A DNA stretch of 64,000 nt from Candidatus Aenigmatarchaeota archaeon (GCA_016177025.1 JACOWB010000008.1:14076-78075); one strand, 5' to 3'; shown: positions 3,840 through 15,208, counted from the stretch's first letter. Notes: generated by a model from the letters alone, not told the origin. Numbers and translations are program-made.

Positions 3840-4574
3840 GTGAAAACGATTAAAGTAAGTTTCGATGTCTCCAAATCAACGGTTGCTTTGCTTGTGTTCG
3901 CACTAGGCATAGGATACTTATTAGGAAATGTATTCGGAGTGTCCAGTTTTACAGGAAAGACTACTGAAATTACAGCTATAACTCAGACACAGCCTACGCA
4001 ACAGCAACAACCGTCAAAAGTTCAAGTATCGATTGATGATGATCCTTCAATGGGCGAAAAGGATGCCAAAGTTATAGTTATAGAATTTTCTGATTTCCAA
4101 TGTCCGTTCTGTAGAAGATCCTACACAGATACAATATCTCAACTGAAGAAGGATTATATTGATACAGGGAAGGTGCTTTTTGTATACAGAGATTTCCCAT
4201 TAAGCTCCATACATCCTAGCGCATCATCTGCTGCCATGGCTGCCAACTGTGCGAATGAACAAGGCAAGTTCTGGGAAATGCACAACAAAATATTTGATGA
4301 ACAAAACAAGCAAGGGCAGGGAACAGTACAATTTTCTAGTGATGACTTGAAGAAATGGGCCGATGAGATTGGTTTAGACACTGATAAATTCAATTCTTGC
4401 TTAGACTCACAAAAATACAAAGATGAAGTTGATAAAGACTTTCAAGACGGTGTAACAGCTGGCGTCACAGGGACTCCGACATTCTATATAGGGAATCCAA
4501 AAGACGGATATACAGAAATCGTAGGTGCTCAACCGTATTCTGTTATCAGGCAAGTGATAGATTCAATGCTTTAA
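3840..4574 (+). CDS. DsbA-like thiol:disulfide oxidoreductase (thioredoxin fold), N-terminal signal anchor
   Basis: FQCPFCRR CxxC active site in DsbA-like context; hydrophobic N-terminal segment; GTG start. Confidence 0.7.
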   Translation: MKTIKVSFDVSKSTVALLVFALGIGYLLGNVFGVSSFTGKTTEITAITQTQPTQQQQPSKVQVSIDDDPSMGEKDAKVIVIEFSDFQCPFCRRSYTDTISQLKKDYIDTGKVLFVYRDFPLSSIHPSASSAAMAANCANEQGKFWEMHNKIFDEQNKQGQGTVQFSSDDLKKWADEIGLDTDKFNSCLDSQKYKDEVDKDFQDGVTAGVTGTPTFYIGNPKDGYTEIVGAQPYSVIRQVIDSML

Positions 4575-5143
4575 TGAACATTATGGGAAAAAGGAATGTA
4601 TTTGTACATAACTTGAAAGAAATAAAAGAGTCTGTAGTGCTCGTCTTTAGCAAACAGGTTTATATATTTTCCGCGATTTCAATTTCAGCTTTTCTTTTTT
4701 TCTTATTTATTTTCCTTACAAACATGCCACTCTTTCTCCAAGCATGGTCGGTGGGCGGATTTGCACTTTTTCCTAAAGTTTCGTTGAATATTATCAATAC
4801 TATCTTGTCTGTTTCGGGTAACTTGGCTTTAAGCCTGATGGTTGCTGTAGCTCTAGCCGGGGGAATTAACATTTCCATGATTGCTTTCAAGTTTCTGGCA
4901 ACAAGAAACAGAGAAATTAATTTGTTCAGCATAGGCGGCTTAATCGGGAGTGCATTCGGTGCAGGCTGTCCTGCCTGTTCAACCTCCTTACTTTCGATAT
5001 TAGGTGTTACGGGCGGTTTGTCAATTCTTCCCTTCAAAGGTATTGAGTTCACATTCAGCGGTTTGATAATTCTTCTTATTTCTTTATATTTTATAGCCAA
5101 GTCAATAAGTAATTGCGAAGAGTGCAAGATTAGAGCTAATTAG
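4574..5143 (+). CDS. polytopic membrane protein with intramembrane GAGCPAC motif and C-terminal CEEC; candidate redox partner of DsbA or metal permease
   Basis: About 5 predicted TM helices. GSAFGAGCPACSTSLLSILG lies in a hydrophobic segment; NCEECK is at the C-terminus. N-terminal domain of the 7581-9002 protein shares the same motif arrangement. Confidence 0.45.
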   Translation: MNIMGKRNVFVHNLKEIKESVVLVFSKQVYIFSAISISAFLFFLFIFLTNMPLFLQAWSVGGFALFPKVSLNIINTILSVSGNLALSLMVAVALAGGINISMIAFKFLATRNREINLFSIGGLIGSAFGAGCPACSTSLLSILGVTGGLSILPFKGIEFTFSGLIILLISLYFIAKSISNCEECKIRAN

Positions 5144-5196: not shown

Positions 5197-5508
5197 ATGA
5201 TAAAAACACCATATAAATTATTCTTCGGTACATTAAGCAATGAGATAAGATTAAAAATATTGCATGCATTAGCGGAAAAACCTAAAAACGTCACACAACT
5301 TACTAATGAACTCGGGTTTGACCAAACAACTGTGTCAAAGAACTTAAAGCGTTTGGCTACATGCCAATTTATTACAAACAAGAAAATAGGAAAACACAGC
5401 ATCTACTCTTTAAATAAGAAGACCATCTTGCCTTTGCTCAAGCTTATAGATAGACATGTTGATAAGTATTGTAAAAACTGCGAGTTGCTCCTGAATGAAA
5501 GAATATGA
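5197..5508 (+). CDS. ArsR/SmtB-family HTH transcriptional regulator (archaeal MerR-like position)
   Basis: ArsR HTH signature LKILHALAEKPKNVTQLTNELGFDQTTVSKNLKRL. Immediately upstream of and overlapping the merA-like gene. Confidence 0.75.
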   Translation: MIKTPYKLFFGTLSNEIRLKILHALAEKPKNVTQLTNELGFDQTTVSKNLKRLATCQFITNKKIGKHSIYSLNKKTILPLLKLIDRHVDKYCKNCELLLNERI

Positions 5509-6782
5509 TTTAATAATCTTGGGTCAAGGGTCAGCCGCATTTGCTGCAGCAATAAAAGCAAATGATTTAGGAATAAAAACAGCTATGGTTGGTGGCAATG
5601 CCACTTCCGGTGCGTTAATAGGTGGTACTTGTGTTAATGTTGGTTGCATGCCAAGCAAGAATCTAATCACAGTGGGGACCCTCTATTACCATGCGGTGAA
5701 TAATTCTTTCGAAGGGATTAAATATGGAAAAGGAAGACTCAATTTCAAGAAAGTTATCGAACAAAAGGATAGGCTTGTAAAGAAGTTTAGAAAAGAAAAA
5801 TATGCTGATGTTGTGAAAGGTTTGGAGAACGTGACTTATTTTGAAGGCAAAGGTAAGTTCATTTCTAAGGATGAAGTCGAAGTTGAAGGTAAAACACTAA
5901 AAGGAAAAAAGTTCTTGGTTGCTGTCGGTGCAATATCTAACATAATTCCTGTTCAAGGAATAGAAAAAATAGAGTACCTAACAAATGAAGAAGCTCTGAG
6001 TTTGAAGGAATTACCTAAATCAATGTGTGTCATTGGTGGCAGGGCTTTAGGACTGGAATTTGCACAAATGTATGCACACTTTGGAACTAAGGTAACAGTT
6101 TTGCAAAGAAGCGATAGAATTCTTCCAGAGGGGGAACCTGAAATTTCTGAAGCATTGAGAAAATACTTGGAAGAAGAAGGTATAATTATTTACACAGGGA
6201 CAGAGATTAACAGTGTAGATAAGAAAGGGAAAAATAAAACTGTTAATTTCACTGTTGGCAATGAAACAAAAGAAGCTGAATTTGAGCAAATTCTATTTGC
6301 AACTGGCAGAAAACCAAATACAGAAAATCTGGGATTAGAGAAAGTAGACGTGAAAACTGATGAAAAGGGTTTCATTATAGTGAATGATGAAATGCAAACA
6401 TCTGCACCAAGTATTTGGGCTGCCGGAGACGTCATTGGGGAACCTATGCTGGAAACTATTGCAGCGAAAGAAGGTGCTGTAGCAGTGGATAATGCTTTTA
6501 CGGAAAGCAAAAGGAAGATTAATTTTAATGAAGTTCCTTCTGCTGTATTTACCTATCCTGATAGTTGCAGACAATGATACAAAACAGATTGTGGGCGTTC
6601 ATATAGTAGCACCCCACGCAGCCGATCTTATACATGAAGGAACGCTAGCCGTTAAATTCAAGATGAAAATAGATGACATAATTGACACAGTCCATGTTTT
6701 TCCAACATTATCTGAAGCGATTAAATTAGCTGCACAGTCATTCTATAAGGATGTTAGCAGGCTGAGCTGTTGTACCGAGTGA
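5495..6782 (+). pseudogene. merA: mercuric reductase (MerA)-like pyridine nucleotide-disulfide oxidoreductase, disrupted by an internal deletion and a frameshift
   Basis: N-terminal FAD motif and redox-active GGTCVNVGCMPSK (CxxxxC). The dimerisation domain ([15 protein letters not shown]...[15 protein letters not shown]) continues in a second frame from ~6580. The C-terminus [11 protein letters not shown] carries the MerA-type vicinal Cys pair. About 45 aa of the interface domain is missing between TYPD and KQIVGV. Confidence 0.6.
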
Positions 6783-6894: not shown

Positions 6895-7566
6895 ATGGAA
6901 AAAGTTTCTTGTGATGTCTGCGGTAGAAAGTTCAAGACTAGTGAAGCCTTGACCCAACATAAAAATGATGCGCATAAACAGACTAGTGACGAAAAACAAC
7001 AAAGAAAAAAGAAGATATCAACAGGTAAGATACTTGCTTTTTTGATACCATCCTTGATTGTTTTAGGCATTGGATACGGGATTTATTGGGCTTTGTCAAC
7101 AGAAGGTGTGGGAACTATTGGGTCAACGCATATCCACGCTGACTTTGCTGTTTTTCTGGATAGTGAAGAAATTACCCCGCTTCCAGAGCAGTATTTTGTA
7201 GCTAGTCCGTATGTGCATGTCGAGACTGGAGCTGGAGCTGGTACTGTAATTCATATACATGCCACTGACGTACCTCTGAAGATGTTTTTCAACAGTCTCG
7301 GTATGAAGTTTAACTCAGAGTGTTTCGAAGCTGGTCAGGACAACAAATACTGTAATTACGGTGATACTACTCTGAAAATGTTTGTAAAGCATGCTAATAG
7401 TACATGGGAACAGAATTTCGAATATGAAAAATACATCTCCCAAGATTTGGATAAAATATTGATTACATACGGGAGCGACACGGACGAGGAGATTCAGCTA
7501 CAACAGAATAATGTAACAGATTTCTCAAAAGACAACTCTGGCAGAAGCATGGCTCTAAGAAGATAA
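6895..7566 (+). CDS. membrane protein: N-terminal C2H2/zinc-ribbon-like Cys2His2 element, one TM helix, extracytoplasmic His-rich domain (paralog family A)
   Basis: CDVCGRKFKTSEALTQHKNDAH; TM ILAFLIPSLIVLGIGYGIYWAL; then HIHADF...IHIHATD...KMFFNSLG...C...C, homologous to 10042-10551 and 14344-15015. Confidence 0.55.
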   Translation: MEKVSCDVCGRKFKTSEALTQHKNDAHKQTSDEKQQRKKKISTGKILAFLIPSLIVLGIGYGIYWALSTEGVGTIGSTHIHADFAVFLDSEEITPLPEQYFVASPYVHVETGAGAGTVIHIHATDVPLKMFFNSLGMKFNSECFEAGQDNKYCNYGDTTLKMFVKHANSTWEQNFEYEKYISQDLDKILITYGSDTDEEIQLQQNNVTDFSKDNSGRSMALRR

Positions 7567-7580
7567 ATTTAATAGCTCTA

Positions 7581-9002
7581 ATGGAGAAAGAATATATAAT
7601 GAAACGGAAATCCGGCATTCGAGAAATGGTATCGAACACATTTACCGTTGTAGCACGCAAAAATCTTGCGTTCTTTCTGATTTCATTAATAGCATTCACC
7701 CTTCTATATCTGTTCTTTTACGGTGTTTTCACAATCCCTGTCCTTGAGATAGGATTCTTCAAGGATGTCAAGCCTGGTGCATTTGATTACTTCTACATTT
7801 TCTCTTCGTCTTTATTGTCGGCATTGATAGTGACGTTGACAAAATATTCAATCACGAACAAAGTTCTTACCAGAGGAACATCCATTTTTGGCATATCTGC
7901 AGGTGTATTCGGTGCAATATGCCCTGTATGCTTGGGTGTGAATTTCCTAGTATTTGGTAGTTTTGTAACGCTTCCTCTGGTTTCATTGATTCCTTATTTA
8001 TTCTGGATACAGCTTGCTGGTCTCACGTTATTGACATTGGGCTTAGGGGCGACTATAAAAAATTCTTATGATAATATTTGCCTGGCATGCACAACTGAGA
8101 TTAAAGAAAAGAAAATCAAGACAAGTCTATTGGGTAGTACACTAAATCCTTTCCAAAGTTTTGTATTTTTTGCGTTATTGCTGTTGGCTATTTTTGCCTT
8201 GGGGTATCAGATTCTACCGCTGGTGTTGGGAGACGTATTTACTAGCACGGGTGCAGCAGTCGCTACAAATGGTCATGATAGTGATTTAGATTTAGAAACA
8301 GTAGTTTCGCAGGTTCTTCCTGAAGAAGGATTTACAATAGATGCTATATGGGAGGACTCTGTAAGCAAGATGGTGAAAGCTGGTACATTAGATATTGATA
8401 AATTGAACGACATATTGACAAAGCGGTATGGTCAACCATTGACAGAAGAACAGAAGAAACTATTGACATCGGATTATTCTAATGAAAAACTTACAATAAA
8501 CTCAAAGAATGCGGTTTTCATGATGTATGTTCTTTGGGCTCTAGCGAAAGACAATGACAACCAGATTCTGCATGACAGTCCGTTTGCACAGTATTTTGAA
8601 GATTATGATATAGGAGTTGGTAAGGCTGGTTATGGTGATACTAAATTAATTGACTTGACTCCCGAGCAGCAGGAGATTGCAAAATACGCTGCACTTAATT
8701 CCTACAGACCATGCTGCGGCAATCCTACAGGTCATCCCGATTGTTCGCACGGATTTTCTGCATTGGGGTTGATTGAATTGATGGCAGAACAAGGATATAC
8801 CAAAGAACAGATATTCGATGCTTTCGTGAAATTCAACTCATACTGGTTCCCGTCCACGTATATCCAAGATGCGCTATACTTTAAATTGGCAGAAAACAAA
8901 GATTGGAGTGATGTTGACAGAGAACTTGTTGCTGGAAAGCAGTATTCGTCCTTATCTGGCTCTTATGCGGTTAAGCAATACTTGCAAAATCTAGGAGTAT
9001 AG
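7581..9002 (+). CDS. large membrane protein: N-terminal domain with intramembrane GAICPVCLG and loop CLAC motifs; C-terminal soluble Cys-containing domain of unknown function
   Basis: About 6 TM helices in the first ~200 aa, paralogous to the 4574-5143 protein. C-terminal domain contains PCCGNPTGHPDCSHG. Confidence 0.5.
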   Translation: MEKEYIMKRKSGIREMVSNTFTVVARKNLAFFLISLIAFTLLYLFFYGVFTIPVLEIGFFKDVKPGAFDYFYIFSSSLLSALIVTLTKYSITNKVLTRGTSIFGISAGVFGAICPVCLGVNFLVFGSFVTLPLVSLIPYLFWIQLAGLTLLTLGLGATIKNSYDNICLACTTEIKEKKIKTSLLGSTLNPFQSFVFFALLLLAIFALGYQILPLVLGDVFTSTGAAVATNGHDSDLDLETVVSQVLPEEGFTIDAIWEDSVSKMVKAGTLDIDKLNDILTKRYGQPLTEEQKKLLTSDYSNEKLTINSKNAVFMMYVLWALAKDNDNQILHDSPFAQYFEDYDIGVGKAGYGDTKLIDLTPEQQEIAKYAALNSYRPCCGNPTGHPDCSHGFSALGLIELMAEQGYTKEQIFDAFVKFNSYWFPSTYIQDALYFKLAENKDWSDVDRELVAGKQYSSLSGSYAVKQYLQNLGV

Positions 9003-9012
9003 GAGGTTAAAA

Positions 9013-9204
9013 ATGAATACAAATGTCGTGTTGCTTGCGCTGATAGGCATACTGGTGTTGATGGCTGGAATACAGGCTTTCCAATTGACTACACTGTCAC
9101 AGGCTATCTCCGGCGGTACATTAATGTCCTCATCAGTGTCAGGTGCGGGATCTGGCGTACTATCGCAACTGTCGCAAGCTTCACAAGTCGGCGGATGCGG
9201 ATAG
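9013..9204 (+). CDS. small secreted/membrane-anchored Ser/Gly-rich peptide ending in GGCG
   Basis: 63 aa; hydrophobic N-terminus then S/G-rich tail with C-terminal ...VGGCG; AGGAGG RBS 8 nt upstream. Confidence 0.4.
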   Translation: MNTNVVLLALIGILVLMAGIQAFQLTTLSQAISGGTLMSSSVSGAGSGVLSQLSQASQVGGCG

Positions 9205-9232
9205 GTTTTCTTCTTTAATTGGAGATGAATAA

Positions 9233-10039
9233 TTGAGAAAACAAAAAAGGTCAGATAACAGATTATTCTGGAATATGTTTTTCGGACTTGTGGTAGTTCT
9301 GATAGTTCTGTACGGAGTGAACATTTTTATAACTGGCAATATAATCGGTCCTTTAAAAGATTCTGCTGAAAAGGAAAGACCGGCGAACTTGCATCTGGCT
9401 TTAATCACGAATGATTGTGACAACTGTTACGACATGAACAATGCTGCATCATTCATAAAAAGACAGACTACTGTGAAAGTAATTACGGAAAAAAATCTTA
9501 CATATGCCGATAAAGCGGCGCAAGAACTTGTATCTGCGAACAACATCAAAACGCTACCGGCTTTGGTGATTACAGGCGAGACTCTTCAAGATAATGTAAT
9601 GCCATTGTGGAATAGCATGGGTGCAGAATTTGTGGGCAATGTTGTCATTGTAAACGGCATACCACCTTATTACAGTTTAGACGCACAAAAAATCGTGGGA
9701 CTTGTACAAGTAACCAAATTGACAGATAACTCCTGTGCAGAATGCTACGATGTTGAAAACCATATGGCGATATTGCCGAGATTTGGCATCTACATAGACA
9801 AGTCAATACCTTATGATGTGTCCTCAGCCAACGGCAAGACTTTGGTACAGAAGTACAACATAACTAAAGTCCCTACGATAGTCCTTTCATCGGACGCTTC
9901 TGCATACACTTCGCTAAATAATGTATGGGGAGATGTGGGTACTGTTGAAAGCGACGGGCAGTATGTTTTCAGAGCTGTAGAACAGATGGGAACCTATAAA
10001 GATCTTGCTCGGAATAATGTAATCAATGCGACCAGATAA
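9233..10039 (+). CDS. membrane-anchored protein with two thioredoxin-like CxxC repeats
   Basis: N-terminal TM, then two ~110-aa repeats, each with a CxxC (NDCDNCYD and NSCAECYD) followed by a cis-Pro-like VPT/LPAL pattern typical of the Trx fold. Confidence 0.5.
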   Translation: MRKQKRSDNRLFWNMFFGLVVVLIVLYGVNIFITGNIIGPLKDSAEKERPANLHLALITNDCDNCYDMNNAASFIKRQTTVKVITEKNLTYADKAAQELVSANNIKTLPALVITGETLQDNVMPLWNSMGAEFVGNVVIVNGIPPYYSLDAQKIVGLVQVTKLTDNSCAECYDVENHMAILPRFGIYIDKSIPYDVSSANGKTLVQKYNITKVPTIVLSSDASAYTSLNNVWGDVGTVESDGQYVFRAVEQMGTYKDLARNNVINATR

Positions 10040-10041
10040 AA

Positions 10042-10551
10042 ATGAAAAAGTCAAAAAAAAATCAAAATCTAATTTTAGTTTTTATTATAGTCATTGCTAC
10101 TATCGGTTTGGGACTAGGTTTGTATTCTTTGCTTGCTGTTTCGAAAACTACCGGTTATGTCAGTTTACCTAATAAGCCGATACATTGGCATCCTCACCTT
10201 GAAATAATTATAAAGGGTGAAAAAGTTGTCATACCTACCAACATAGGAATTGGTACAAGTTATTCGGGTAGCCCATTCTACGATTCGATGATGGACATGA
10301 CTAACATGCATACTCATGATGACAGCGGCACATTACACTGGGAAGTTATGATGCATGCACCAACACGTGAAGACATGTACCTCGGTAATTTCTTCCAAGT
10401 CTGGGGAAAGACTTTTAATGAGAATTGCATTTTTGAATTTTGCAACGGTCCTGAAGGAAGTATGAAAGTGTCTGTAAATGGAAAAGAAAATAATGATTTT
10501 GAGAGTTATATTATCAGAGATGGAGATGAAATAGTAATAGAATTTAAGTGA
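10042..10551 (+). CDS. membrane-anchored extracytoplasmic His-rich domain protein (paralog family A)
   Basis: N-terminal TM; IHWHPHLEI...HTHDDSGTLHWE...LGNFFQVWG...C...C...SVNG; homologous to 6895-7566 and 14344-15015. Confidence 0.55.
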   Translation: MKKSKKNQNLILVFIIVIATIGLGLGLYSLLAVSKTTGYVSLPNKPIHWHPHLEIIIKGEKVVIPTNIGIGTSYSGSPFYDSMMDMTNMHTHDDSGTLHWEVMMHAPTREDMYLGNFFQVWGKTFNENCIFEFCNGPEGSMKVSVNGKENNDFESYIIRDGDEIVIEFK

Positions 10552-10556
10552 AGATA

Positions 10557-10694
10557 ATGGTAATAGACCCTGTTTGCAAGATGGAAATCCCCGAAGGAAA
10601 CATCAAAGCCCAAAATAAAGGAAAGACATACTATTTCTGCAGCAGCAACTGCCAAGCTGAATTCATGATATATCCGAATAAGTTTGTAAAATAA
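10557..10694 (+). CDS. YHS/TRASH-domain small metallochaperone (CopM-like), 45 aa; not in ORF track
   Basis: MVIDPVCKMEI...KTYYFCSSNCQAEF is a YHS/TRASH Cys pattern. It is closely similar to the N-terminal domain of the CopA immediately downstream, in the CopM-CopA arrangement known from Sulfolobus. Confidence 0.6.
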   Translation: MVIDPVCKMEIPEGNIKAQNKGKTYYFCSSNCQAEFMIYPNKFVK

Positions 10695-10703
10695 TATAAT
10701 TAT

Positions 10704-12776
10704 ATGACTGTAGATCCTGTCTGCGGAATGTATGTCGATGAAAAGAAAGCTATCTTCAAGAAGGATATCGACAGTAAGACTATTTATTTCTGTAGTGAAA
10801 ATTGCCTGAAAACTTATGAGTCCCGTGAAAAGGAATTCAAAAAATTAAGATTACTTGTTATCCTAAGCGGATTGATAGCTGTTCCTGTGGTTGCTTTGTC
10901 ATTCTTTTACAAACTCCCGTACAATAATTGGATTCTGCTTTTGCTCGCTACGCCAGTGCAGTTTGTTGCGGGCTGGAGGTTTTACAAAGGCATGTGGGAC
11001 GGGCTGAAAGCTAGAAGCGCGAATATGGACACGCTAATCGCAACCGGAACTTCTGCCGCATGGTTTTATAGTGTGTCGGTGGTTTTCTTCCCAGCAATCT
11101 TTACAGGAGAAACTTATTTTGACGCTTCTGTAATCATCATCGCACTTGTATTATTCGGAAAGCTTTTGGAAGAAATTGCCAAAGGGAAGGCATCCGAATC
11201 CATCAAAAAATTGATGGGATTGCAACCGAAAACTGCACGGATAATTAAAAACGGAAAGGAGGTTGAGATTCCTATCGAAAATGTTCAAATTAATGACATA
11301 ATTGTTGTCAGACCAGGAGAAAAGTTCCCTGTTGATGGCATTGTCGTTGAAGGGGAGTCCTCTGTTGATGAAAGCATGATTACTGGTGAATCGATGCCGG
11401 TGACAAAAAGGAAAGGTGATGAAGTCATTGGTGCGACTATAAATAAATCCGGATTGCTGAGATTCAAAGCCACTAAGGTCGGCAAGGATACTGTCCTGCA
11501 GCAGATAATTAAAGTTGTTCAGGAAGCGCAAACTGGCAAAGCACCTATACAGAGACTGGCTGACAAAGTTGCGTCTATCTTCACCCCGAGTGTTATCGCT
11601 GTTGCCATCTTATCGGGAATATTATGGTTCTTTCTGGGGCAGAATTTCATTTTTGCATTGACGATATTCATTACGGTTCTGATAATAGCATGCCCGTGTG
11701 CATTGGGAATAGCCACGCCAACCGCAATTCTGGTAGGTACAGGATTGGGAGCTCAGAATGGAATTTTAATCAAGGGTGGCGAAGCATTGGAAATCGCCAA
11801 GAAAATAAACACAATAATTTTTGACAAGACTGGAACACTGACGAAAGGCGAACCTTCTGTTACTGATGTTGTAAGACTAGGAAATGTGAAAGAGAACGAA
11901 GTTTTGAGATTGGCTGCCATTGCCGAAGTAGGCTCTGAACATCCTATCGGGGAAGCTATCGTTAAGAAAGCCATGGAAAGTAATCTGACACTGCCGAATG
12001 TAAAATCTTACCAGACTGTTTCTGGTAAAGGAATTAAAGTCACATATCTGAATAAAAGGATTCTGGTGGGCAACAGGACTTTCATGAAAGAGAATGGAAT
12101 TGTTATCACAGAGCTTGAAGGTGAGATACAAAAACTGGAAGATGAGGGGAAAACGACTGTGATTGTTGCTTATGGTGATAAAGTTATCGGATTGATTGGA
12201 GTTGCAGATACTCTTAAAGAGTTTTCGAAGGATGCTGTTCAACAGCTGAAGAAAATGGGGATTGGTGTCTGGATGATTACAGGGGATAATGAGAGAACTG
12301 CAAATTCTATTGCAAGTGACGTTGGCATTGATTATGTTATGGCGGGCGTCTTGCCTGAGGATAAAGCGAAGAAGGTGAAAGAACTGCAGGATAAAGGAAT
12401 GATAGTCTCCGCTGTTGGTGACGGAATTAATGATGCTCCCATGCTGGCACAGGCTGATTTGGGAATTGCGATAGGTTCTGGAACAGATGTTGCACTTGAG
12501 ACAGGTAAGATAGTTCTGATTAAGAATGATTTGAGAGATGTTGTTACTTCGATTGACTTGAGCAAGTATACTGTCAACAAGATAAAACAGAATCTTTTTT
12601 GGGCATTCTTTTACAATACTGTCGGGATACCGTTAGCTGCAGGAATATTATATCCATTCTTCGGATTGTTGCTTTCGCCGATAATTGCTGGTGCAGCCAT
12701 GGCATTTAGCTCATTTTCTGTAGTTGGAAATTCACTTTTAATGAGAATGTACAGACCAAGAATACAAACGAAATAA
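10704..12776 (+). CDS. copA: copper-translocating P1B-type ATPase with N-terminal YHS/TRASH metal-binding domain
   Basis: DPVCGMYVD...YFCSENC N-domain, TGES, CPC ([11 protein letters not shown]), [15 protein letters not shown] motifs; 8 TM topology. Confidence 0.9.
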
Positions 12777-12799
12777 CATTTAAAAGCAATAGTGATTGT

Positions 12800-13306
12800 A
12801 TGAAAACTCTATGGATAGCACTAGCAAGCATCCTTGCTTTAGTCACTTCTGCATATGCCCATATGGAAACATCTTCTGTCGAAGACATGATGGGTTCTAT
12901 GATGGCTGAGCAAAATGCTAGCGAGTTGGGACAATTAGATTGTAGCAAAATACCTGACAGTGAATTCGAAGAACTTGGCGACGCTACGATGGAAAGAATG
13001 GTAGGTGGTAGTGAATTACACGAGCAGATGGATACTATGATGGGTGGGGAAGGTTCTGCGAGTTTGACGCAAATGCATATTATAATGGGAAAGAACTGGT
13101 TGAGTTGCACGAGTCTCCAAGGCATGATGGGAAGCAATATGATGCCTATGATGATGAGAATGATGGGAAATTACTATCCATCTTATTACACAGGTTATAA
13201 TGCAGCTTTAATTTTTGCTATACTTGGTTGGGGATTGGCTGCTGTATTGATTGTGATTTTGGTTTTAATTCTCACGGGCAACATTAAAATTAAAAAAAGA
13301 AAATAA
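12800..13306 (+). CDS. secreted Met-rich protein with C-terminal membrane anchor; putative Cu(I)-binding
   Basis: Signal peptide ...SAYA/HM; multiple MMGSMM / MxxM / MMPMMMRMMG Mets motifs; C-terminal TM plus KKRK; adjacent to copA. Confidence 0.5.
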   Translation: MKTLWIALASILALVTSAYAHMETSSVEDMMGSMMAEQNASELGQLDCSKIPDSEFEELGDATMERMVGGSELHEQMDTMMGGEGSASLTQMHIIMGKNWLSCTSLQGMMGSNMMPMMMRMMGNYYPSYYTGYNAALIFAILGWGLAAVLIVILVLILTGNIKIKKRK

Positions 13307-13357
13307 CGGAAGGTAGGATATTAACTATCTTAATTCCGCTAGTTCACTTGAAAAACT

Positions 13358-13636
13358 CTAAGAAATATCACGATAAGTATCGTACATGAAAGTGCATTCT
13401 TTATTATGTTTCGCCAACAGCTTTTTCACACGATTAAAAATCGCATCAGATTTTATCTCCTTTCTACCCTTCGCCAACAGTTGTATATTCTCCATGATGT
13501 CTCTGGAAATTTTCTTTGCTATTTTTTCTTCCATCTCAGCACTTAAGCAGGCATTATAAACAGACTTGTACAGCTTCGCTCCACTGAATTTCTCCTTTTT
13601 ATTACTTCTTTTTACGACGTACATAACTTCACCCAA
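13358..13636 (-). CDS. stand-alone ATP-cone domain protein
   Basis: YVVKRSNKKEKFSGAKLYKSVYNAC...IAKKI matches the ATP-cone (VIKRDG..E.F...KI..AI) pattern; 92 aa. Confidence 0.45.
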   Translation of the reverse strand: MGEVMYVVKRSNKKEKFSGAKLYKSVYNACLSAEMEEKIAKKISRDIMENIQLLAKGRKEIKSDAIFNRVKKLLAKHNKECTFMYDTYRDIS

Positions 13637-14351
13637 AGTTTATCGTACCGTTCGCTATTAATATTAATAGCCAACTCAAACCGATTAAAAGCAATCCTGT
13701 AAACAATCGCATGTGTGCACGATATTTTTGTTTCCATATTTTTATGCTAGTTATTCTTGCACCAATTAAAAATATAATCAGAATTACAATTAAAGGTAAA
13801 ACAAAAATCAAATTATACAAAACTAATAAACTGAATGCGGTAAAGTCGAAATGTTGTGATAGAAGTAGAATGATGGCAAGATAAGGTCCGCCAGTGCATG
13901 GTAACTCGATAGCAGCTACGAAAGCACCGAGGAATAGTAAACTTGGAAATGTTATTTTTGTTGAATACTCGCTTATTTTCTTCGCCATACTAGGTGCGAT
14001 ACTTAAACTGAATCCTTTTCCATACCATAAGAAATCTTTTATTTCCACTAGTCCGGCTAATGTCAATACCGATGCAACAGCAACGCTAATATATGCGGCT
14101 ACGACAAGTGGAATTTGGCTAAGAAATGTCATCAGTCCCAAACCCGCTAAAAGATAAGTTGTAAAAACAGCGCCAATATAAGCCAGACCAAATATAAACA
14201 TCTTCCTCTTTGTCTGACGCATTATTAAAAATGTCGACAAAAGTAGAAGCAACACCCCGATAGCACAAGGATTGATAGAATCTACTAATGCAGTCGCCAT
14301 TACAATACCCAATGCAGGCAACCCGGCCTCTACAACCATATTATCACTCAA
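13629..14351 (-). CDS. ccdA: CcdA/DsbD-family transmembrane thiol-disulfide electron transporter
   Basis: Two conserved Cys in TM helices 1 and 4 (SINPCAIGVL and ELPCTGGPYL); ~6 TM; 240 aa. Confidence 0.7.
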   Translation of the reverse strand: MSDNMVVEAGLPALGIVMATALVDSINPCAIGVLLLLLSTFLIMRQTKRKMFIFGLAYIGAVFTTYLLAGLGLMTFLSQIPLVVAAYISVAVASVLTLAGLVEIKDFLWYGKGFSLSIAPSMAKKISEYSTKITFPSLLFLGAFVAAIELPCTGGPYLAIILLLSQHFDFTAFSLLVLYNLIFVLPLIVILIIFLIGARITSIKIWKQKYRAHMRLFTGLLLIGLSWLLILIANGTINFG

Positions 14352-15015
14352 AAACTATTTTTATGAAATCACCTGGTGGAACCTGTGAATAAGGTGAGAT
14401 GATGTAATCACGATAATTTCCCGTGTAAAGTTTATCATTTACAGACATTTCCACGCTTCCTTTCTTCCCATCAGGACAATAATCACCGTTTCCAACGTTT
14501 AGAATTTTCTCATTTGAGAAAGGAACATCGATTGCATCGAAAAAGTTACCGAGAGTGGCATCTTCTCTTTCTTTCATGACACCCTCCAAATGAATTCTAT
14601 AATCACCGTGATGATGAATTTCTTCTGTTCCAATTCTGTTTGCCAACCCTGTCGGTTCAGGTAAAACAACTTTTTGACCACATATCCAAATTTCAAAATC
14701 AGCATGCCAGTGTACCAATCCCTTACTCCAAGATGTTAATGACATGTACACAGTATTTCCAACAAGATACCCGGTAGATACAACAGCTGACACAACTATT
14801 ATCCCAAAAATAATTCTTTTTTGACTCTCCTTCAAACTATCTTTATAAGTTAACAACATTGTTGTTGATGCGAGTATAACAACAACTGTTAGAGCTAGTA
14901 CAGTTGTTGAACTAAATTGGTGAGTTAGACTTTCTGAAGCAGTTTCGTGTAGTTCTCCTGTATGAGCAAACGTAGCAGGCATCAGAAAGATAAACAATAC
15001 CAAGCTGGCAAGTCT
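14344..15015 (-). CDS. secreted/membrane-anchored His-rich domain protein (paralog family A); likely start at MRLASLVLF
   Basis: Signal peptide MRLASLVLFIFLMPATFAH; HWHADFEI...HHHGDYRIH...LGNFFDA...C...SVN...IKIVFE, homologous to 10042-10551. The track ORF extends to 15120 but overlaps the upstream small gene. Confidence 0.55.
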   Translation of the reverse strand, partial: RLASLVLFIFLMPATFAHTGELHETASESLTHQFSSTTVLALTVVVILASTTMLLTYKDSLKESQKRIIFGIIVVSAVVSTGYLVGNTVYMSLTSWSKGLVHWHADFEIWICGQKVVLPEPTGLANRIGTEEIHHHGDYRIHLEGVMKEREDATLGNFFDAIDVPFSNEKILNVGNGDYCPDGKKGSVEMSVNDKLYTGNYRDYIISPYSQVPPGDFIKIVFE

Positions 15016-15022
15016 CATGAAA

Positions 15023-15208
15023 TCAACAAACCTCACATATGTTAGCTTTCTTTTTCTTTCCCTTATGTTTTTCGTAATGTTGAACGCATTTTCCGCAACA
15101 AAATAATCGTTTATGAACATGGACTTTCTTTCTTAGATGAAGAGTCTTGCCACATTCATAACATTTCTCCAAGTTTGTTGCTTTCCACGAGAGAATTTTT
15201 TTAATCAT
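15023..15208 (-). CDS. small TRASH-like zinc-ribbon protein (Cys4/His-rich, Lys-rich tail)
   Basis: CYECGKTLHLRKKVHVHKRLFCCGKC has C-x2-C-x17-C-x3-C spacing, like TRASH/YHS metal-binding modules; 61 aa. Confidence 0.45.
   Translation of the reverse strand: MIKKILSWKATNLEKCYECGKTLHLRKKVHVHKRLFCCGKCVQHYEKHKGKKKKANICEVC

Follow-up and report, generated by a model that had tools for sequence, protein, structure and literature searches.

The question raised by this locus is what three related His-rich membrane proteins do, and with which partners, in what would be a Cu/Hg island. The window, which is the whole stretch of 64,000 nucleotides analysed, comes from Candidatus Aenigmatarchaeota archaeon. 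An earlier note proposed that it encodes three copies of one His-rich extracytoplasmic domain, each paired with a small cytoplasmic Cys element. The features of the region are as follows.

4574-5143, plus strand: "mem189", a small polytopic membrane protein with GAGCPAC inside a predicted membrane span and CEEC at the C-terminus
5197-5508, plus strand: ArsR-family regulator
5495-6782, plus strand: MerA-like pyridine-nucleotide disulfide oxidoreductase with Pyr_redox_2 and dimerisation domains and a ...SCCTE end
6895-7566, plus strand: paralog A, 223 aa, with a cytoplasmic C2H2 finger at aa 6-27, a single TM helix, the ectodomain and a conserved C-terminal tail
7581-9002, plus strand: "mem473", with an N-terminal polytopic domain, CPVC in a predicted membrane span and CxxC after the last such span
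9013-9204, plus strand: peptide of 63 aa, membrane-anchored or secreted, with GGCG at its end, kept in Aenigmarchaeota relatives
9233-10039, plus strand: membrane-anchored double thioredoxin-like protein with CDNC and CAEC motifs (Thioredoxin_3 and Thioredoxin_2 below threshold)
10042-10551, plus strand: paralog B, 169 aa, with a TM anchor and the canonical His-rich beta-grasp ectodomain (predicted fold; H48, H50, H90, H92, H99, E101, C129/C134)
10548-10694, plus strand: YHS micro-protein (Pfam YHS, PF04945, 41.7 bits, cutoff 30.3)
10704-12776, plus strand: CopA-type P1B ATPase with an N-terminal YHS domain
12800-13306, plus strand: Met-rich membrane-anchored protein, directly after copA here and in the relative's locus L008
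13629-14351, minus strand: CcdA/DsbD-like membrane protein (Pfam SfLAP, PF11139, 38.3 bits, cutoff 35)
14344-15018, minus strand: paralog C, with a signal-peptide-like segment, TFA|HTGELHE (His and acidic residue), two TM helices, the His-rich ectodomain and its own invariant Cys pair
15023-15208, minus strand: TRASH-like cytoplasmic protein of 61 aa, rich in Cys, encoded upstream of paralog C (PF24273, E 0.03)

The three ORFs carry one common domain of approximately 120 aa, as the earlier note had claimed. Pairwise BLASTP gave E values of 1e-13 (B and C), 6e-6 (A and C) and 4e-6 (A and B), and the family HMM found exactly three matches in the window, namely A, B and C (E values of 3e-70, 7e-31 and 1e-28); the three proteins are paralogs. 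The gene of paralog C likely begins at 15018 and not at the 15015 given earlier. Its longest ORF spans 14344-15120 on the minus strand, the true start is likely Met35, and with this start the overlap with the TRASH-like gene, which ends at 15023, disappears.

The family profile matched at least 3,778 clusters (50% identity), most of them in CPR bacteria or DPANN archaea. No match to the ectodomain was found in Pfam, NCBIfam or the PDB sequences, and the libraries searched lack a model, a structure and a name for it. H48, H50, H90, H92, H99 and E101 (HHHHHE; numbering of paralog B) occurred together in approximately 220 of 236 homologs, and the replacements at these six positions were D, E, H, N or Q only. 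The six His/Glu positions are conserved. In regards to paralog A, the signature takes the variant form HIH ... HVE ... HIH, in which H92 is replaced with Glu and E101 with His; this swap, which leaves five His and one Glu, is kept by the paralog A orthologs at the relatives' loci L001, L008, L009 and L011.

Of the shared motifs described earlier, the HxH near the domain start and the C-terminal hydrophobic strand were found in all three paralogs, and the others held in part. B and C have LGNFF, where A has LKMFF. The central HxHxD/G block is present in B (HTHDD) and C (HHHGD) and absent from A, which has HVETG and in which the later H-x-E has turned into H-x-H. The two conserved Cys (C129/C134) occur in A and B, and paralog C has only the second, plus another Cys in WICG. 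Both Cys of paralog C are invariant among 74 C-type relatives, and the C129/C134-type pair is kept or lost jointly, with both residues in 199 members and neither in approximately 30.

Structure comparison of the predicted model assigns the ectodomain to the beta-grasp fold of the soluble-ligand-binding kind. The six putative ligand residues occupy alternating positions on predicted strands 47-49, 89-91 and 97-102 (model pLDDT 92), and from these strand positions alone we infer that they lie close together in space. The ligand of the nearest folds is cobalamin and not a metal ion, which counts against a metal-binding reading. The earlier note had named a confident non-metal assignment or variable His/Cys positions as evidence against its proposal; the His positions are conserved, and the comparisons gave a beta-grasp of the soluble-ligand-binding kind and no confident non-metal family. 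Basic residues ahead of the TM anchor, the joint keeping or loss of the Cys pair and a lipobox-like N-terminus in two relatives suggest that the ectodomain is membrane-tethered and faces the outside. Among the C-type proteins, a signal-peptide-like segment followed by [AGSC]-His-acidic was found in 53 of 61 unique full-length N-termini (and in 3 more by eye).

The ectodomain genes are linked to those of constant partners, namely polytopic proteins that carry a Cys pair within the membrane, plus Trx, DsbA or VKOR proteins. The CcdA-like gene shares the last 8 nt of paralog C, and its counterpart was found downstream of the C-type gene at 73 of 80 loci. All 60 sequences aligned share its C29 (NPC) and C152 (LPCTG.PY), both of which sit in Pro-Cys motifs within the membrane. 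The protein matched SfLAP only and neither DsbD_TM nor DsbD_2 among the Pfam models; SfLAP belongs to the same Pfam clan as these two. The conserved neighbour of A/B-type genes is mem473, whose C-terminal domain of approximately 270 aa contains an invariant RPCC...PDC.HG; a gene of this family adjoins B-like genes in most CPR loci that have enough flank. The smaller mem189 is a relative of the mem473 N-terminal domain, and its CPR homologs share operons with B-like genes. No matches to the MerC and MerT profiles were obtained with mem189 or the mem473 N-terminus at E up to 1 (7 members), and the likeness is presumably only the G-C-x-x-C motif in a membrane span. Genes for DsbA, VKOR or Trx occur in the same gene runs as family members, and the position of the thioredoxin-like gene at 9233-10039 is conserved among relatives.

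In regards to the surrounding island, the ArsR-MerA pair is intact at L001 and L009, and the merA frame of the window is broken by an internal deletion of approximately 42 aa and a frameshift relative to L009 and does not encode an intact MerA. The gene for the Met-rich protein lies a few kb downstream of copA in other relatives. CopA is encoded within 3 kb of the gene at 12 of 80 C-type loci, as well as at Aenigmarchaeota loci and one Doudnabacteria locus; none was found within the flanks examined in most CPR loci. SCO1 occurs in the same gene run as a family member, and ArsR-CDF-CDF genes adjoin that run. The domain is also fused to others. In 6 proteins the C-terminus carries a cupredoxin domain, which the Cys/His/Met motifs suggest to be type-1-like or CuA-like, and one protein has an HMBD at its N-terminus; a long C-terminal extension was found in 7 of 216 members.

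The proposed pairing of each paralog with its own small cytoplasmic Cys element held only in part: of the three elements, only the C2H2 fusion recurs widely. The finger of paralog A has the exact C-x2-C-x12-H-x4-H spacing (C6, C9, H22 and H27, residues 6-27), and a fusion of this kind is present in 53 of 216 sampled members. The profile score of paralog A was 21 bits (cutoff 25.2), and relatives reached E 3e-8 on zf-C2H2_6; spacing and profile match place this N-terminus in the C2H2 family (PF00096 and relatives). The YHS micro-ORF exists as described and scores above the Pfam cutoff. It is 38% identical to the N-terminal YHS domain of CopA (E 4e-9, a paralog) and always lies directly 5' of copA, and in relatives ArsR-MerA stands between it and the B gene. 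Because of this paralogy and constant place, the micro-protein is probably the cytoplasmic partner of CopA, not of paralog B. The 61-aa protein is a Cys-rich ORF, as noted earlier, but its TRASH identity remains below the Pfam threshold (PF24273, E 0.03, 14.9 bits, cutoff 27); the spacing C16-x2-C19 ... C37-x3-C41 fits TRASH by eye. Its homologs lie upstream of the C-type gene at 8 of 80 loci, and one is also present at L008; a small ORF of any kind with four or more Cys was found there at 9 of 56 evaluable loci. The adjacency of the TRASH-like gene and paralog C is confined to close relatives.

The best explanation, to which we give about an even chance, is that the family is an unannotated membrane-tethered extracytoplasmic beta-grasp domain for a metal, likely Cu, and the outward partner of a Cys-pair membrane protein. 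The earlier suggestion of an uncharacterised extracytoplasmic metal-handling domain is thus supported by the negative library searches, the near-invariant His/Glu residues, the cupredoxin and HMBD fusions and the CopA, SCO1 and ArsR-CDF neighbours. HxH, HxH and HxE on three predicted beta-strands would form the metal site, and copper would be the most likely metal, as the cupredoxin/HMBD fusions and the CopA and SCO1 neighbours suggest. Each copy would face outward beside a dedicated polytopic protein with a membrane-embedded Cys pair, which may be the CcdA/DsbD-like protein (13629-14351) for paralog C and the CPxC proteins (7581-9002 and 4574-5143) for paralogs A and B, with thioredoxin-fold proteins accompanying these partners. 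The three copies would thus sit in a Cu/Hg island of ArsR, MerA, YHS-CopA and the Met-rich protein. The ectodomain would likely capture copper or hand it over at the cell surface, and the partner may give reducing equivalents or a thiolate path through the membrane; the bound metal, the direction of transfer and the mechanism are putative. A metal-centred, quinone-independent way to make or break disulfides in the envelope, or a relay that passes copper from His to thiolate through the membrane, is an unlikely elaboration. Against copper, a His/Glu-only site suits Zn, Ni, Co and Cu(II) equally and would be atypical of Cu(I) and Hg(II) binding. The CDF neighbours suggest Zn, Co or Cd over Cu, and many of the hosts are anaerobes, in which few cuproproteins are known.

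The domain resembles CopC, PCuAC, Sco1 and CusF in being small, extracytoplasmic and often membrane-tethered or a lipoprotein, and its genes, like those of copper chaperones, lie beside copper ATPases, SCO1 and thiol-disulfide oxidoreductases. The predicted mature N-terminal His, in C-type proteins only, recalls CopC, and the pairing with a membrane partner is analogous to CopC-CopD. Unlike these chaperones, the domain is a predicted beta-grasp, not cupredoxin-like, Ig-like or thioredoxin, and has five His and one Glu with no Met/Cys motif; neither the alignment nor Pfam gave the CopC Ig-like His brace, the PCuAC H(M)X10MX21HXM or the Sco1 CxxxC. As in CcdA/DsbD with ResA, TlpA or ScsB-ScsC, a two-Cys PC-motif membrane protein lies beside, and is probably co-transcribed with, its outward partner, but this partner is a His-rich beta-grasp and not a thioredoxin fold, with its own Cys pair in the C-type. 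Scs and TlpA-Sco systems link copper and thiol redox chemistry, as does the setting here. MerP, MerT/MerC and MerA likewise combine an outside binder, a membrane-span Cys protein and cytoplasmic Cys elements, and the island has MerA and an ArsR-type regulator. The outside domain here uses His/Glu and not Cys, however, no MerC/MerT profile matched, MerA is disrupted, and the module is widespread without MerA.

Four other readings were weighed. The pairing of a His-rich ectodomain with a C2H2, TRASH or YHS element as a Cu/Hg relay across the membrane would account for the recurrent C2H2 fusions, the single HMBD fusion and the TRASH-like adjacency in close relatives. It is very unlikely: YHS goes with CopA, TRASH-like ORFs are found at few C-type loci, most of the 216 sampled members have no cytoplasmic element, and His/Glu are poor Hg ligands. 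The C2H2-TM segment also looks like a generic anchor, because L001 uses the same anchor for a Trx-like ectodomain. An SLBB-type domain for a soluble ligand of the cobalamin kind is highly improbable. The beta-grasp core and extracytoplasmic location are common to it and the transcobalamin-like clade (transcobalamin/intrinsic factor beta-domain; DUF4430, PDB 3u7z), and CPR and DPANN organisms are generally auxotrophic. SLBB proteins are typically secreted, and in this clade a beta-hairpin insert after the helix contacts the ligand (PMC1796856). Our model has helix 114-121 and then short strands 129-130 and 133-134 by DSSP, so that a short hairpin with the Cys pair (~129-134), read from the strand assignments alone, would lie at the place of that insert. 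In contrast to the clade, extra N-terminal strands bear the first HxH, the six His/Glu are invariant and not among the SLBB features in PMC1796856, whose text never uses the word histidine, and sequence kinship is not detectable. PF14478 (DUF4430) was not among the listed matches of A, B and C (E up to 0.1) or among the best 25 of 50 families for 33 members (E up to 1). The neighbours examined gave no B12 gene context, with no alpha/alpha-toroid partner and no CbiO/CbiQ-type transporter genes.

The remaining two readings keep a metal site and are each quite improbable. The His5Glu set may hold one or two Cu (or Fe) as a catalytic centre, acting as an oxidase or reductase and not as a chaperone, and either drive envelope thiol-disulfide chemistry with DsbA/VKOR/Trx and the Cys-pair proteins or oxidise Cu(I) exported by CopA. 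To our knowledge, the hosts generally lack quinone biosynthesis. The fused cupredoxin electron-transfer domains, the operons with DsbA, VKOR, Trx-like and CcdA-like genes, the richness of these proteins in CC/CxxC and the invariant Cys pair of C-type domains favour such a centre, and beta-strand HxH motifs resemble the Cu sites of multicopper oxidases and the Zn site of carbonic anhydrase. The ectodomain, however, resembles no known oxidase fold, cupredoxin fusions are a small minority, and many hosts come from anoxic groundwater. Alternatively, the domain may be a receptor for uptake of Zn, Ni or Co by a LysE/DsbD-superfamily or CPxC-type permease, or a tethered sensor signalling via cytoplasmic C2H2/HMBD. 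The all-His/Glu ligands, the ArsR-CDF-CDF neighbourhoods and the resemblance of a zinc finger, one TM helix and an ectodomain to single-pass sensors fit this, and the Pfam clan of SfLAP includes the metal permeases NicO, CadD, MntP and HupE. Against it, the cupredoxin, SCO1 and CopA links indicate copper, the two invariant PC-motif Cys of the partner are a CcdA/DsbD redox hallmark and not a hard-metal site, and the cytoplasmic domain is absent from most members.

If the domain is a metal site that works with thiol proteins embedded in the membrane, its sequence clusters, at least 3,778 in number, would make up a new family of metallochaperones or redox proteins of the envelope. The three co-resident paralogs, one of them ligand-swapped, would serve as a natural experiment on site tuning, and the family would give a handle on copper and envelope cysteine management in organisms without much of the classical machinery.

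We searched the family hidden Markov model against all ORFs of the window and obtained matches only to paralogs A, B, and C, in agreement with the earlier note that three proteins have a common His-rich domain of about 120 aa. Pairwise BLASTP gave E-values of 1e-13 (B–C), 6e-6 (A–C), and 4e-6 (A–B). A protein annotated from a Candidatus Aenigmarchaeota MAG is 100% identical to mem473 (473 aa), which places the window in a DPANN archaeon. The genes discussed below are as follows.

Paralogs and neighboring genes (window positions)
4574–5143, +, mem189, small polytopic membrane protein with a Cys motif in a predicted membrane span
6895–7566, +, paralog A, 223 aa
7581–9002, +, mem473, polytopic membrane protein related to mem189
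9013–9204, +, p63, 63-aa protein
9233–10039, +, Trx268, thioredoxin-like protein
10042–10551, +, paralog B, 169 aa
10548–10694, +, YHS micro-ORF
10704–12776, +, CopA
13629–14351, −, CcdA-like membrane protein
14344–15120, −, paralog C, longest ORF
15023–15208, −, TRASH-like 61-aa ORF

The likely start of paralog C is Met35, so that the gene spans 14344–15018 and no longer overlaps its upstream neighbor, which ends at 15023. Paralog C carries a signal-peptide-like segment followed by two TM helices and the domain, and paralog B has a TM anchor alone ahead of the domain. In paralog A, an exact C-x2-C-x12-H-x4-H finger (residues 6–27) is followed by a basic stretch, a single TM helix, and the domain. 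A protein of a homologous locus (L001:18499–18996) has the same C2H2 finger and TM anchor as paralog A, with a thioredoxin-like ectodomain (FQCSHC) in place of the His-rich domain. This combination suggests that the finger and TM helix together form an anchor used with more than one ectodomain.

No Pfam or NCBIfam match to paralog A, B, or C covered the domain, PDB sequence searches with paralog B and the family profile gave no match, and the relatives were all named "hypothetical protein" or had no name. The family profile gave 3,778 matches at E ≤ 1e-3 and 1,816 at E ≤ 1e-10 among 1.84 billion cluster representatives, and the hosts of the named matches were Aenigmarchaeota, Micrarchaeota, Woesearchaeota, and many CPR/Patescibacteria lineages. 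A homolog search with the lipoprotein-type member P0153 gave only 14 matches, all metagenomic. Nothing on this family came up in literature searches on DPANN, copper, and disulfide, on DUF3105, or on cupredoxins in CPR/DPANN.

We counted the conserved residues in a 236-sequence alignment using the numbering of paralog B.

Conservation of the six signature residues
H48, 230/231
H50, 227/233
H90, 236/236
H92, 233/236
H99, 235/236
E101, 232/236

The complete HHHHHE pattern was found in about 220 of the 236 sequences, and the replacements at these positions were D, E, H, N, or Q without exception. In paralog A, HTH is changed to HVE and HWE to HIH, a swap kept exactly by the orthologs in four other Aenigmarchaeota genomes. 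Because five His and one Glu are retained overall, we take the swap to indicate that positions 92 and 101 would share one site. In regards to the Cys residues, C129 and C134 were both present in 199 sequences and both missing in about 30; this joint retention or loss fits a dispensable disulfide of an outward-facing domain. The C-type proteins lack C129 and have another Cys pair ("W.C" and "gd.C"), which was invariant in 74/74 unique sequences.

The AlphaFold2 model of paralog B had a mean pLDDT of 92 and, with weak agreement from Foldseek, the modeled domain is a β-grasp of the type that PMC1796856 describes as soluble-ligand-binding (SLBB); a sequence relationship between the domain and SLBB was not detectable. 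DSSP analysis of the model placed HTH and HWE on a hairpin (strands 89–91 and 97–102) ahead of helix 114–121, and HWH on an extra N-terminal strand (47–49). The six signature residues are expected to form one patch in this model, because alternate residues of adjacent strands face the same side.

The earlier note had paired each paralog with a small cytoplasmic Cys element, and this pairing failed for two of the three (YHS with B, and TRASH-like with C). The YHS micro-ORF was 38% identical to the N-terminal YHS domain of CopA (E 4e-9) and was always directly 5′ of copA, and ArsR-MerA intervenes between YHS and B in the relatives. The gene order of window region 5197–6782 is rearranged compared with the homologous loci L001, L008, and L009: in the relatives, paralog B and YHS-CopA are separated by ArsR-MerA, which in the window is found upstream of paralog A, so that B adjoins the YHS ORF. 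In the 80 C-type loci (L031–L110) obtained by a metagenome scan with paralog C, a TRASH-like homolog was upstream in only 8, and 9 of the 56 evaluable loci had a small upstream ORF of any kind with four or more Cys. The relay through small Cys elements proposed earlier is quite improbable. The MerA-like gene of the window (5495–6782) is broken compared with an intact 472-aa ortholog (L009:10837–12255): about 42 aa are absent (EVASVGLTDKEAIRNGIKCNCGVLPLELVPKAHVIGDTRGLVK), and a frameshift leads to a stop at 6577. The Cys pair characteristic of MerA is still present at its C-terminus (...SCCTE). Either the gene is a pseudogene or the break comes from an error in the assembly.

The CcdA-like and mem473 partners are far more constant than the small Cys elements. 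A CcdA-like gene followed the C-type gene in 73/80 loci, and its two Cys (NPC and LPCTG.PY) were invariant in 60/60 aligned sequences. A stand-alone 92-aa ATP-cone protein (13358–13636, −) is encoded by the next gene 3′ of the CcdA-like gene, in the same orientation, and this order occurred in 46/80 C-type loci. It is an unexpected nucleotide-sensing domain for a membrane/envelope operon.

The constant neighbor of the A/B-type genes was the mem473 family. Its members combine a polytopic N-terminal domain, in which a predicted membrane span carries CPxC, with a C-terminal domain marked by an invariant RPCC...PDC.HG. The genome-collection scan used a narrow alignment (A3), which biased its loci toward the B subfamily with the "MM.MT" insert; among its 14 CPR loci, a clear mem473-type gene adjoined the B-like gene in 8 and was cut by the contig end in a ninth. 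Locus L028 also has a mem473-type gene, upstream of a cupredoxin fusion. The order A-mem473-p63-Trx268-B is conserved in Aenigmarchaeota, and mem189 often accompanies the mem473-family gene; a MerC-like assignment of mem189 and mem473 had no Pfam support at E up to 1 and was rejected. The further companions were DsbA (4 loci), VKOR (L028), a Cys-rich family of about 195 aa (5 loci), and DUF3105 (3 loci).

The longer mem473 homologs of CPR (L004:8535–9980 and others) end in ...GG(A/S)xCG(V/T/I), a tail that Aenigmarchaeota mem473 lacks, and p63 ends in a similar ...VGGCG; p63 may be a detached form of the tail. The Cys-rich family, for which no Pfam match was found, is membrane-anchored, has Cys clusters (...GSCCSPM... 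and ...GPCCCKCWRW...), and is encoded directly upstream of the B-like gene (L015:9334–9927, L018:1787–2407, L022:5718–6332, L023:9268–9849, and L025:9217–9804). The DUF3105 proteins (L020:5267–5836, L021:2149–2724, and L024:10390–10896) have an HxxEHG motif and are encoded beside or near the B-like gene; the one paper found to mention DUF3105 gives no functional information on it.

A cupredoxin is fused to the C-terminus of six family members and reads, from its Cys/His/Met motifs, as type-1-like in some and CuA-like in others; one member has an N-terminal heavy-metal-binding domain (HMBD). A C2H2 finger was present in 53 of 216 sampled members, a sample biased because the finger was part of the search profile. 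Outside DPANN and CPR, we inspected the neighborhoods of two relatives with lipobox-like N-termini: one lies in a gene run SCO1-89aa-68aa-domain beside ArsR-CDF-CDF-MerR, and the other follows ArsR-CDF-CDF. In the window and its relatives, the domain copies are set among ArsR, MerA, YHS-CopA, and a Met-rich protein. The latter (12800–13306), a membrane-anchored protein of 168 aa with MMxxMM runs, probably binds Cu(I) in the envelope. Its gene immediately follows copA in the window and in L008, and is found a few kb farther 3′ in other relatives from Aenigmarchaeota.

Of 61 unique full-length C-type sequences, 53 had an N-terminal part (about 40 aa) in which a hydrophobic segment was followed by (A/G/S/C)-His and acidic residues, and the His-acidic pattern could be seen by eye in 3 others (examples: VFA/HEGEE, YA/HEEE, and FA/HEGEE; window copy, TFA/HTGELHE). 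The mature protein is predicted to begin with His if the signal peptide is cleaved. In CopC, the Cu(II) His-brace is built on such an N-terminal His, and the C-type proteins resemble CopC in this predicted feature, possibly a His-brace-type second metal site.

The best-supported reading is that the His-rich domain is a membrane-tethered extracytoplasmic metal-binding domain, and the metal is most likely copper. An SLBB binder of a non-metal ligand is very unlikely. A receptor or sensor for Zn or Ni, favored by the ArsR-CDF neighborhoods and opposed by the cupredoxin, SCO1, and CopA links, is improbable. It is also unlikely that the domain is a catalytic copper centre linked to disulfide chemistry, a reading to be viewed together with the DsbA and VKOR companions found at a few loci.

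The family libraries and papers searched contained neither the signature of six residues nor the paralog with swapped ligands, nor the tight link to Cys-pair membrane proteins. The domain is probably an envelope metal-binding module, and modules of that kind are known. For this copper-binding reading, a dedicated thiol-bearing membrane protein would work with the His-rich domain, giving electrons or a thiolate path. The arrangement resembles CopC-CopD, Sco/TlpA/CcdA, and Scs in that an envelope copper chaperone is paired with a thiol-redox partner, and the His-rich family belongs to none of these systems. It appears to be unannotated, yet it is widespread in CPR and DPANN lineages.
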